Shown here: positions 32,311-34,432 of the stretch, piece after piece
How positions within the stretch are numbered: the stretch's first letter is position 1
Layout of the letters: each line of letters begins with the position of its first letter
NCBI GenBank assembly: GCA_963700145.1
Contig: OY969474.1
Coordinates: 384,001-448,000 of the forward strand
DNA: 64,000 nt
From: an uncultured Acidobacteriota bacterium
Lineage (GTDB): Bacteria > Acidobacteriota > Thermoanaerobaculia > Multivoradales > UBA5704
Direction: 5' to 3'
Notes under the pieces: generated by a model
The model's database searches: none
Told to the model about the DNA's origin: nothing
Seen by the model: only the letters and a program-made list of their open reading frames with translations
Translations under genes and position numbers: made by a program

Positions 32311-33380
32311 AGCCACCCCGGCCCCGGCTGCGTCAGCCCCGCGGTCTCGGGAAAGCCCAGCAAGCGGTTCATCCACTGCACGCCGCCGCCGGCCGCGCCC
32401 TTGACCAGGTTGTCGAGGGCGGAGAAGACGGCGACGTGGTCGCCGTCCACCGCGGCGGCGAGGCGGCAGCGGTTGGTGCCGACGATGTCCTGGAGGCGCG
32501 GCGGCTCGGGGCCGACGTCGACGAACGGCGCGCCGGCGTAGAAGTCCGCCAGCGCCGCGGTCACCTCCGCGGCGGAAATCGGCCGCAACAGCCGCGCCTG
32601 CAGCGTGGCGTAGATGCCGCGCGCGAACGGTCCGGCCTGCGGCACGAAGTGGATCTCCGGCTCGATCCCCGAGGCGGCCGCGGCGAGGGCGCGCATCTCC
32701 GGCGCGTGGCGGTGGGCCAGCGGCTTGTAGGCGAAGAGGTTGCTGCGCCGCGCCGGATGGTGGGTGGTCGCCGTGGGCGTGCGTCCGGCGCCGGTCGAGC
32801 CGGTGACGGCGACGACCGAGAGCCGCGGCTCGACGAGCCCCAGCCGCAGCAGCGGCACGGCGGCGAGGAGCACGGCGGTGGTAAAGCAGCCGGGGTGGCC
32901 GATGTGGCCGTCCCAGCCGCCGTTCAGGTGCTCGGGCAGCGCGCAGCGGAAGGCGTCGAGGAGCGCCGGCGCGCCGTGCGGCTGGCCGTAGACCTCGGCG
33001 TACTCGGCGGCGGCGGCGAAGCGGAAGTCGGCCGAGAGGTCCACGGCGCGCGCTTCCGTTCCCGCCGCCGCGGCGGCCGCCAGCACCTCGTCGAGGAGCG
33101 CCGCCGCGGCGCCGTGCGGCGCGGCGCAGAAGAGCGCCAGCGGCGCGCCGCGGTGGCGGGCGAAGAGGGCCGGCAGCTCCTCGCGCCGCGCGAAGACCGT
33201 GCCGGGAAAGGCGCCGGCGAGGTGCGGGAAGGCGCCTTCGACCAGCTCGCCGGCCTGGCTCTCCGACACCGCGGCCGCGAGCCGCAGGTGCGGGTGGCCG
33301 GCGAGGAGGCGGAGGAGCTCGCCGGCGACGTAGCCCGAGCCGCCGAGGACGACCGCCGGGACCGTCGCGTCGCCGCTCAT
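32307..33380 (-). CDS. argC: N-acyl-gamma-glutamyl-phosphate reductase
   Basis: GGSGYVAGEL, DLSADFR, PGCF, TGAGR, DNLVKGAAG. Confidence 0.93.
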   Translation of the reverse strand: MSGDATVPAVVLGGSGYVAGELLRLLAGHPHLRLAAAVSESQAGELVEGAFPHLAGAFPGTVFARREELPALFARHRGAPLALFCAAPHGAAAALLDEVLAAAAAAGTEARAVDLSADFRFAAAAEYAEVYGQPHGAPALLDAFRCALPEHLNGGWDGHIGHPGCFTTAVLLAAVPLLRLGLVEPRLSVVAVTGSTGAGRTPTATTHHPARRSNLFAYKPLAHRHAPEMRALAAAASGIEPEIHFVPQAGPFARGIYATLQARLLRPISAAEVTAALADFYAGAPFVDVGPEPPRLQDIVGTNRCRLAAAVDGDHVAVFSALDNLVKGAAGGGVQWMNRLLGFPETAGLTQPGPGWL

Positions 33381-34432
33381 CGCAGCACCTCCTGCGCCAG
33401 CCGCTCCCGCACCAGCGCGGCCAGGCGCGCGCCGTCGCTCCGCGCGTTGATCGCCGGCAGGCCCAGCTCGCGCTCGATGACCCGCGTCCCCGCCAGGTTG
33501 TCCGTGGCCGGGCCGGTCACCGCCAGCGGCTCGATGCCGAAGCGGTCGCGCAGCAGCCGCACGCCGCCCCACGCCGCGACCGGGTCGTTGGCGGCGAGCA
33601 CCACGGCGCTGAAGGCGGCGCGCAGCCCCGCGTCGTCGAGGATCGCCGCCACCCCGTAGGCGCCGAGCAGACCGTCCCCCAGCTCGGCGACGACGAGGTC
33701 GGGCCGGCCGGCGGCGAGGCGCGCCAGGAGGCCGCGGGCGACGGCCGCCGCGTTGTCGTCGGTGGTGGCGACGACGCCGAGGTCGGTGAAGTAGGTCGTG
33801 CGGCGCGCGCCGGCGTCTTCCATCGCCAGCAGGTCGCGGCGGAGCGAGACGCCGGTGGCCTTGAGCGCGTCCACGACGAGACCGCCGCGCGCCAGCTCGT
33901 GGACTAGGGCGCAGGCGGCGGCGGTCTTGCCGCAGTTCATGCACGAGCCGACCAGCGCCACGACGGGCGGCGGGTCGAGGAGCGGCGGCGGCGGCGCCGG
34001 CGGCTCGCCGGCGATCGTCGCCGCGACGCCGATGCGCTCGCCGAGGAAGGGGAAAGCGAGCACCGCACCCAGCACCTCGCACTCGAACGGCGGACCGAGC
34101 TCCGGGCTGGCGGCGTCGCAGATCCCCAGCACGCCGCCCATGTTGAGCAGGTGGACGACGTCGCCGGGCGCCAGCCGCTCGGGCAGGTGGCCGGCATAGC
34201 CGAAGAGCGCCTGCCGGTGGCCGAGGGCGCCGGCCAGGACGTCGCCGCGCTGCACCTTGGCGAGGCGCCCGCTCGGCAGCTCGAGCTGGTCGTAGGTGCT
34301 TTTGTCGTTGCGCACCCGCACCGCGACGACGGTTCCTTCGCGGCACGGGATCTCGTCGCCCAGCTTCACTTCGTGGGGCAGGGCGCAGGCGCGGGTGACG
34401 GAGGAGATTTTGTCCAGATGTACGGTTCTCAT
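33377..34432 (-). CDS. DUF1611-like P-loop protein inside arg operon
   Basis: GSCMNCGKT P-loop, KATGV, ELGDG; ATG at 34432; stop overlaps argC start (ATGA). Confidence 0.7.
   Translation of the reverse strand: MRTVHLDKISSVTRACALPHEVKLGDEIPCREGTVVAVRVRNDKSTYDQLELPSGRLAKVQRGDVLAGALGHRQALFGYAGHLPERLAPGDVVHLLNMGGVLGICDAASPELGPPFECEVLGAVLAFPFLGERIGVAATIAGEPPAPPPPLLDPPPVVALVGSCMNCGKTAAACALVHELARGGLVVDALKATGVSLRRDLLAMEDAGARRTTYFTDLGVVATTDDNAAAVARGLLARLAAGRPDLVVAELGDGLLGAYGVAAILDDAGLRAAFSAVVLAANDPVAAWGGVRLLRDRFGIEPLAVTGPATDNLAGTRVIERELGLPAINARSDGARLAALVRERLAQEVLR

Follow-up and report, generated by a model that had tools for sequence, protein, structure and literature searches.

For the first step of arginine synthesis two solutions are known, the GNAT-type ArgA (a kinase-like domain joined to a GNAT domain, TIGR01890) and ArgJ (PF01960); Bacteroidetes have a GNAT-type N-succinylglutamate synthase. 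A candidate of another kind was put forward in [quoted passage not shown] (PLoS Genet, 12 Nov 2026, PMC13759103; GapMind 2026 below), where the same role is predicted for the Steroidobacter gene ACG33_RS14135 (bioRxiv Appendix 2). This gene encodes a hypothetical P-loop protein in an argR-argG-?-argC-argD-argF′-argB-(argE)-argH cluster without ArgA, with a neighbouring ArgF′ of succinyl signature and with a remote likeness to the D-glutamate acetyltransferase DgcN. Here we describe a protein of this kind, named X, which is encoded on the minus strand of a 64,000-nt stretch of contig OY969474.1 from an uncultured Acidobacteriota bacterium (positions 384,001 to 448,000; the whole stretch is called the window). 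X lies between argG and argC of an arginine operon, and our comparative analyses suggest, with moderate confidence, that it most likely makes N-succinyl-L-glutamate, replacing ArgA and ArgJ non-orthologously. We favour a synthase because conserved synteny, mutual exclusion with ArgJ and ArgA and a gap in the pathway all fit this role.

According to Appendix 2 of GapMind 2026, homologues of ACG33_RS14135 lie "virtually always" in arg operons and never occur together with ArgA homologues, 90% of 70 neighbouring ArgF′ proteins have A, P, S or V at position 92, and the protein resembles PDB entry 7XRJ in Foldseek (E 1.4e-7, rmsd 5.6 Å). The X of the window shows the same traits: it occupies the slot between argG and argC, its genome lacks ArgA and ArgJ, and the ArgF′ nearby has alanine at the diagnostic position (A90). 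It is also 56–63% identical over its full length to same-slot genes of Steroidobacteraceae metagenome-assembled genomes (MAGs). From these homologues and the matching description we infer that the X family is the ACG33_RS14135 family; no named S. denitrificans record was present among the 120 matches listed for the Steroidobacteraceae query. The two loci differ in that the window operon carries also an M20 argE, while S. denitrificans, which grows in defined medium, has no ArgE (GapMind 2026, bioRxiv Appendix 2), and in that the window copy comes from a genome of ~75% G+C, its nearest named relatives being MAGs of Thermoanaerobaculia and other Acidobacteriota. The synthase role of this family is not new, and the prediction is to be credited to GapMind 2026. 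New here are the lack of any Pfam or NCBIfam match above threshold for X, the observation that BioD is as close to its P-loop domain as DUF1611, and an N-terminal beta domain with no fold match in the PDB. A literature search found no experimental work on the X family.

Pfam and NCBIfam assignments showed that argR-argG-X-argC-argD-argF′-argB-argE-argH forms one coherent, translationally coupled unit on the minus strand, the genes of which cover all the steps downstream of N-acylglutamate. Overlaps of 4 nt were found at five junctions (X/argC, argD/argF′, argF′/argB, argB/argE and argE/argH), and spacers are as short as 8 nt (argG to X) and 4 nt (argR to argG). These results confirm the gene order and tight coupling described in the initial annotation, which had also noted rightly that the operon lacks an argA, an argJ and a GNAT gene and that ArgB, with an AA_kinase domain only, carries no GNAT fusion. 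The window has a G+C content of ~75% and its open reading frame (ORF) lists are crowded with spurious frames. From the first gene to the last, the operon is composed as follows:

35816-36271, minus strand: argR, the first gene, arginine repressor of 151 amino acids (aa) (Pfam Arg_repressor and Arg_repressor_C; TIGR01529, E 4e-29)
34441-35811, minus strand: argG, argininosuccinate synthase of 456 aa (PF00764 and PF20979; TIGR00032, 277 bits, above the cut-off of 268)
33377-34432, minus strand: X, two-domain P-loop protein of 351 aa, predicted N-succinyl-L-glutamate synthase (position in the arg operon, conservation, AlphaFold2 model)
32307-33380, minus strand: argC (TIGR01850, 279 bits, above the cut-off of 234; junction sequence)
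31150-32376, minus strand: argD, N-acylornithine aminotransferase (PF00202, E 2.5e-88)
30128-31153, minus strand: argF′, N-acylornithine carbamoyltransferase with the succinylornithine signature A90/P182/V299 (NF003384, 364 bits, cut-off 288)
29190-30131, minus strand: argB, N-acylglutamate kinase of 313 aa without a GNAT domain (PF00696, AA_kinase, only; TIGR00761, 203 bits)
28051-29193, minus strand: argE-like M20 deacylase of 380 aa (PF01546 and PF07687; ArgE/DapE family matches below their cut-offs)
26852-28054, minus strand: argH, argininosuccinate lyase of 400 aa (TIGR00838, 288 bits, above the cut-off of 279.5)

The true start of argD lies probably ~20 codons inside the ORF, as family matches begin at residues 31–42. 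The argE-like M20 product is presumed to be a desuccinylase with N-succinylcitrulline as its putative substrate. ArgG ends in a low-complexity tail of ~60 aa with much Ser, Gly, Ala and Arg (window 34441-34640); the Pfam match stops before it, at residue 390. The tail may be a real extension or the result of a late stop codon, and the argG match in locus L068 reaches query residue 454.

What the operon lacks is an enzyme for the first step, and none was recognised elsewhere in the genome, a single contig of 5.46 Mb that is 95.4% complete by marker genes. ArgJ (PF01960) had no match in the whole genome, and the ArgA model (TIGR01890) matched nothing but the argB of the operon, in its kinase domain. 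GNAT domains (PF00583) gave 11 matches, all outside the window. When 10 of these were scanned with NCBIfam, no acetylglutamate synthase model matched at E ≤ 1e-6 and RimI alone passed a cut-off; the eleventh, scanned against Pfam only at E ≤ 1e-10, gave no match.

The nature of the acyl group can be read from ArgF′. Its best PDB matches are chains of the X. campestris acetylornithine transcarbamylase (AOTCase), the top chain having Ala at wild-type Glu92. Counted along the alignments, residues E92, N185 and K302 of AOTCase correspond to A90, P182 and V299 in the window ArgF′. Succinylornithine transcarbamylases (SOTCase) have A, S, P, V or Q at the first of these positions, P at the second and V, I or E at the third (PMC4581275). 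ArgF′ neighbours X in 62 loci; of these proteins 58 have A and 4 have S at position 92, every one has P at position 185, and at position 302 there is V in 31, A in 29 and S in 2. ArgF′ thus bears the succinylornithine signature; therefore the pathway would run on N-succinyl intermediates, and the missing enzyme would be an N-succinylglutamate synthase. Of the two acyl groups allowed by the initial annotation, acetyl or succinyl, the A/P/V signature indicates that it is succinyl.

To follow the gene context in other genomes, one genome per species was scanned with 13 closer X sequences, and the best 80 of 525 stretches encoding relatives were kept and checked by tblastn with the nine window proteins at ≥50% query coverage; many of these loci are truncated where their contig stops. 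The sources are Acidobacteriota (Thermoanaerobaculia and others), a single Planctomycetota MAG and many Gammaproteobacteria, Steroidobacteraceae and Woeseiaceae among them, with X identities of 56–75%. In this set argC follows X in 76 of the 80 loci and the gene order is as in the window. X itself was detected in 79 loci, argC in 76, argR and argG in 70 each, argB in 67, argF′ in 62, argD in 61, argH in 56 and argE in 19. The last gene was present only in Acidobacteriota-type loci and the one from Planctomycetota; it was not found in the gammaproteobacterial loci (L023-L081, e.g., L023:6377-13277), so that N-succinylcitrulline desuccinylase remains a second gap in their operons. Two roles related to ArgE were rejected for X: that of an ArgE metallochaperone, as X persists where the operon has no argE, and that of an ArgE replacement, as the window operon has both genes.

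Co-occurrence was examined in 301 genomes drawn evenly from the phylum by profile searches for X, ArgJ, ArgA and ArgF′ (NF003384); the tallies include G024, G049 and G152, which are flagged unpublished. At E ≤ 1e-20 the X profile matched in 87 genomes with a bimodal distribution of scores, 74 at 356–466 bits and 13 at 200–232 bits (one of the latter being a half-length match at a contig end). ArgJ was present in 83 genomes, ArgA above its cut-off in 4 and ArgF′ above its cut-off in 64. In this phylogenetic profile, proposed in the initial annotation as a check, none of the 74 genomes with high-score X carries ArgJ or ArgA. ArgJ was found in 3 of the 13 low-score genomes. Among the 64 genomes with ArgF′, 60 have high-score X and none has ArgJ. 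X and ArgJ alternate between genera inside the GTDB families f7, f30 and f51, the f7 case resting on G024. Four genomes have ArgF′ and no X (G184, G053, G144 and G181). The contig of G184 ends at argC, and G144 has a Xanthomonas-like gene order. In G053 (L084, G053:C29, 380-7033) the operon has apparently decayed: of X a 70-aa remnant is left, argD is in two fragments and argG is truncated, with argF′, argB, argE and argH intact. Four genomes of the same order (G005, G119, G131, G176) and one of the same class (G143) have neither X nor ArgJ; no ArgF′-type gene was detected in them at E ≤ 1e-40 except for one 39% match resembling ornithine transcarbamylase, and comparing their loci with the slot of X yielded little.

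X is a real, strongly conserved protein. At least 6420 clusters at 90% identity reach E ≤ 1e-3 in its family, those with a name all being called "hypothetical protein" and deriving mainly from Acidobacteriota, Thermoanaerobaculia included; with clustering at 50% identity, 1437 representatives lie at E ≤ 1e-3 and 179 at E ≤ 1e-30. X had no match in NCBIfam and nothing above threshold in Pfam, where its sole match was MobB (E 0.006, below the cut-off of that model). In an alignment of 54 full-length representatives, 27–59% identical to X, we found G33, P84, G100, G168, K169, K191, G194, G208, G219, E250, D283 and G307 to be invariant and S11, E51, R73, T170 (≥90%), D200 and D217 to be near-invariant. 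Translation confirmed the P-loop GSCMNCGKT reported initially, a BioD-type Walker A loop at residues 162–170 (window 33923-33949, minus strand); E250, within ELGDG, is a Walker-B-like residue. The AlphaFold2 model built from the 54-sequence alignment (pLDDT 95.7, pTM 0.92) consists of a beta domain and an alpha/beta P-loop domain connected by a short linker:

34055-34432, minus strand: N-terminal all-beta domain of X, residues 1 to ~126 (DSSP of the models; conserved G33, E51, G71, R73, P84 and G100)
33377-33967, minus strand: C-terminal SIMIBI-class P-loop domain of X, residues ~156–351 (Foldseek and hhalign; invariant K191, E250 and D283)

Modelled alone from 27 sequences, the N-terminal domain reached a pLDDT of 83. 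A Foldseek search of the PDB found nothing similar to it at E ≤ 0.001 (the best match had E 0.15 and TMq 0.22), even with the DUF1611 structures 7xrj, 2g0t and 2obn present in the library. By Pfam, NCBIfam and Foldseek, X contains neither a GNAT nor an amino-acid-kinase domain and lacks the ArgJ fold. Longer "fused" homologues numbered 15, each of them a singleton in which the protein is joined to its neighbour ArgG, ArgC or ArgD; these are most likely gene-calling or assembly artefacts and were not counted as support. Another long sequence, the 626-aa metagenomic representative P0188, has an X-like part (5–311) in frame with an ArgB-like amino-acid-kinase domain (363–597). It echoes the synthase-kinase fusions of classical ArgA, yet as a single representative it is a very weak hint, could be an assembly artefact and was likewise not counted as real support.

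Taken as a synthase, X would N-succinylate L-glutamate to N-succinyl-L-glutamate in the first committed step of the pathway. The product would pass through ArgB, ArgC and ArgD, then ArgF′, acting as a succinylornithine transcarbamylase, and the M20 deacylase, and ArgG and ArgH would finish the synthesis. The C-terminal P-loop domain, similar to those of BioD and DUF1611, would hold a phosphate-bearing co-substrate, and the N-terminal beta domain, through R73 and E51, may contribute the glutamate site. The acyl donor would most likely be succinyl-CoA, by analogy with DgcN, which reportedly uses acetyl-CoA. ArgA and ArgJ share with X the proposed reaction and the place in the pathway, without any relationship in sequence or fold; the same reaction and place are those of the Bacteroidetes N-succinylglutamate synthase, which differs from X in being of GNAT type. 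If the prediction is right, X represents a third, structurally unrelated solution for the first arginine step, after GNAT-type ArgA and ArgJ. X is widespread in soil and sediment Acidobacteriota and in Steroidobacterales, and its assignment as a synthase would close a recurrent gap in metabolic reconstruction by which these organisms are wrongly labelled arginine auxotrophs, and would give a function to the whole family of at least 6420 clusters.

Several observations weigh against this interpretation. In Table 1 of GapMind 2026 the prediction for ACG33_RS14135 is marked as not confirmed. As many as 133 of the 301 genomes have neither X nor ArgJ nor ArgA; therefore the phylum has other unrecognised routes to N-acylglutamate, and lack of ArgJ and ArgA is by itself weak evidence. 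A novel or unrecognised GNAT-type synthase may be encoded elsewhere in the genome. The co-occurrence counts overstate the support, because related genomes are not independent. G181, the fourth of the genomes with ArgF′ and no X, has argC-argD-argF′-argB behind mla genes and lacks X at E ≤ 1e-20. Distant paralogues of X (30–35% identity, 200–232 bits) lie outside arg clusters and have flavin reductases, an M20 peptidase or else a YheC/D ATP-grasp gene as neighbours (L110:7902-8915, L111:8240-9472, L112:8283-9125, L113:7583-8641), and probably have a different function. The remaining points concern the analogy with DgcN, which turned out not to be specific. With the full X model as a Foldseek query against the PDB, the P-loop domain alone matched, with the SIMIBI proteins FtsY, Ffh, BioD and HypB at E ~4e-6 to 8e-5; the DUF1611 structure 2obn came only at rank 26 (E 4.7e-5, TMq 0.40, 219 columns), below FtsY, Ffh and BioD. 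In Pfam, the 54 relatives were matched at E ≤ 0.1, always below threshold, by CbiA (34 of them), DUF1611 (31), MobB (30) and AAA_26 (10). In addition, hhalign aligned the X family with BioD at 86.4% probability (E 4.6e-6, 161 columns, X 154–321), slightly better than with DUF1611 (78%, E 1.8e-5, 237 columns, X 93–347). Replacement of ArgA by a non-GNAT glutamate acylator, as the initial annotation had it, still appears the best-supported explanation; what did not stand is the strength of the DgcN link, and the prediction itself had been published already.

For the comparison of profiles and structures with DUF1611 and DgcN, which had been proposed along with the claim that the P-loop resembles DUF1611, the DUF1611 alignment was built from 12 genes of related genomes and the control BioD alignment from 11 genes; the DUF1611 profile retrieves exactly three PDB sequences, 7xrj (E 3.8e-76), 2g0t and 2obn, and 7XRJ is DgcN according to GapMind 2026. 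The P-loop domains may be remotely homologous. A GK[T] Walker A and an E-G-x-G Walker B are conserved in X and DUF1611 alike, and DgcN acts on glutamate (GapMind 2026). However, X gave no match to PF07755 at E ≤ 0.01, the best match of this model among the 54 relatives had an E of 1.3e-5, and on these profile results X is not a PF07755 member. X aligns with DUF1611 through its C-terminal domain only, the N-terminal domains being different, and the DUF1611 motifs TGQTG, EGQG and LQHAPGR stand against K-x-TG, ELGDG and CA-x-D-x-x-x-AWG in X. The substrates differ as well, D-glutamate and acetyl for DgcN vs. predicted L-glutamate and succinyl for X. A PDB profile search with the X family had BioD as the top match (3fgn, 7.7e-5) and retrieved no DUF1611 chain at E ≤ 1. 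The X/BioD alignments pair the G-S/T-x4-GKT loop, K191 with the Lys of the BioD "WKP" after strand 2, and ELGDG (E250) with EGxGG; the aligned DUF1611 segment reads TGQT and has no Lys at the K191 position. Judged from these alignments, the P-loop domain of X is no closer to DgcN than to BioD, and "DUF1611-like" denotes a shared superfamily only. BioD (TIGR00347/PF13500, SIMIBI P-loop amidoligases), the best profile-profile match of this domain, has its own differences: it consists of one domain of ~220 aa and lacks an N-terminal beta domain like the additional one of 126 aa in X, its reaction is the closure of a ureido ring with ATP and CO2, and it is not linked to arg genes. X had no match above cut-off to the BioD/AAA_26 models.

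Because the P-loop domain is as close to BioD as to DUF1611/DgcN, an ATP-dependent mechanism keeps some probability. Here X would be a CoA-independent succinate:L-glutamate ligase giving the same product, in which a carboxylate of succinate is phosphorylated and then attacked by the glutamate amine; we consider this possible, albeit unlikely. Dethiobiotin synthetase and SIMIBI amidoligases of the CobB/CobQ/CTP-synthase type form C-N bonds in a like manner. The somewhat better hhalign result, the first rank of BioD in the PDB profile search and the loop, K191 and Walker-B-like E250 that X shares with it and, at the K191 position, not with DUF1611 all speak for such a ligase. If it were so, arginine synthesis in these Acidobacteriota and Steroidobacterales would start by an acyl-phosphate mechanism, which to our knowledge is used by no known N-acylglutamate synthase. 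The more specific form of this idea, a CoA-independent BioD-like amidoligase fused to a glutamate-binding beta domain of no known fold, we regard as doubtful. DUF1611 also keeps the Walker A and the Glu of EGQG, so that an intact NTP-type site is no proof of ATP use, and no sequence feature noted here separates CoA from ATP binding. Moreover, DgcN, the only glutamate-acylating enzyme of the superfamily described in the relevant part of GapMind 2026, is called there an acetyltransferase.

Apart from a catalytic role, X could be an accessory or regulatory NTPase that serves ArgB as partner or activator, or that helps in metal insertion or assembly, with N-succinylglutamate being made by an unrecognised acyltransferase encoded elsewhere. 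The closest folds indeed include the G3E and SRP-type regulatory NTPases HypB, FtsY and Ffh, 11 GNAT genes are available elsewhere in the genome, and 133 of the 301 genomes do without X, ArgJ and ArgA. Structure prediction of an ArgB+X complex yielded "weak support" with a score of 0.32 against 0.00 for the best of 3 controls (contacts between runs agree at ≥57%, partner pLDDT ≥89). In the benchmark 58 of 80 solved complexes reached the mark, as did 2 of 110 mismatched pairs, and at scores ≤0.60 it was reached by only 7 of the 80 solved complexes along with both passing mismatches; as our own alignments were used, these counts are only a rough guide. The predicted complex bears on an accessory role, and to the synthase interpretation it would lend very weak additional support. 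On the other hand, the strict exclusion of X from genomes with ArgJ or ArgA is expected of a replacement and not of an accessory factor, substrate binding would suit the conserved extra beta domain, in which an Arg and a Glu are invariant or nearly so, and the 10 GNATs scanned show no resemblance to known glutamate acyltransferases. An accessory NTPase seems to us quite improbable.

A role of X outside arginine synthesis, with the gene only carried along in the operon, as the neighbourhoods of its distant paralogues might suggest, is highly improbable in view of its fixed slot between argG and argC with start/stop overlaps in at least three phyla, its presence in 60 of the 64 ArgF′ genomes and the arg-operon setting that Appendix 2 of GapMind 2026 reports for nearly all homologues.

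Haem and purine genes adjoin the operon at window 20995-25470, with identities judged by eye from translations: a glutamyl-tRNA reductase-like gene (21909-23198, minus strand), an adenylosuccinate synthetase-like gene (24043-25470, plus strand) and a porphobilinogen-deaminase-like C-terminal part within the frame 20995-23808. Just upstream of argR and divergent from it lie two nonribosomal peptide synthetase genes on the plus strand, 37167-42302 (1711 aa) and 42299-52045 (3248 aa), which carry condensation, AMP-binding and PP-binding domains.

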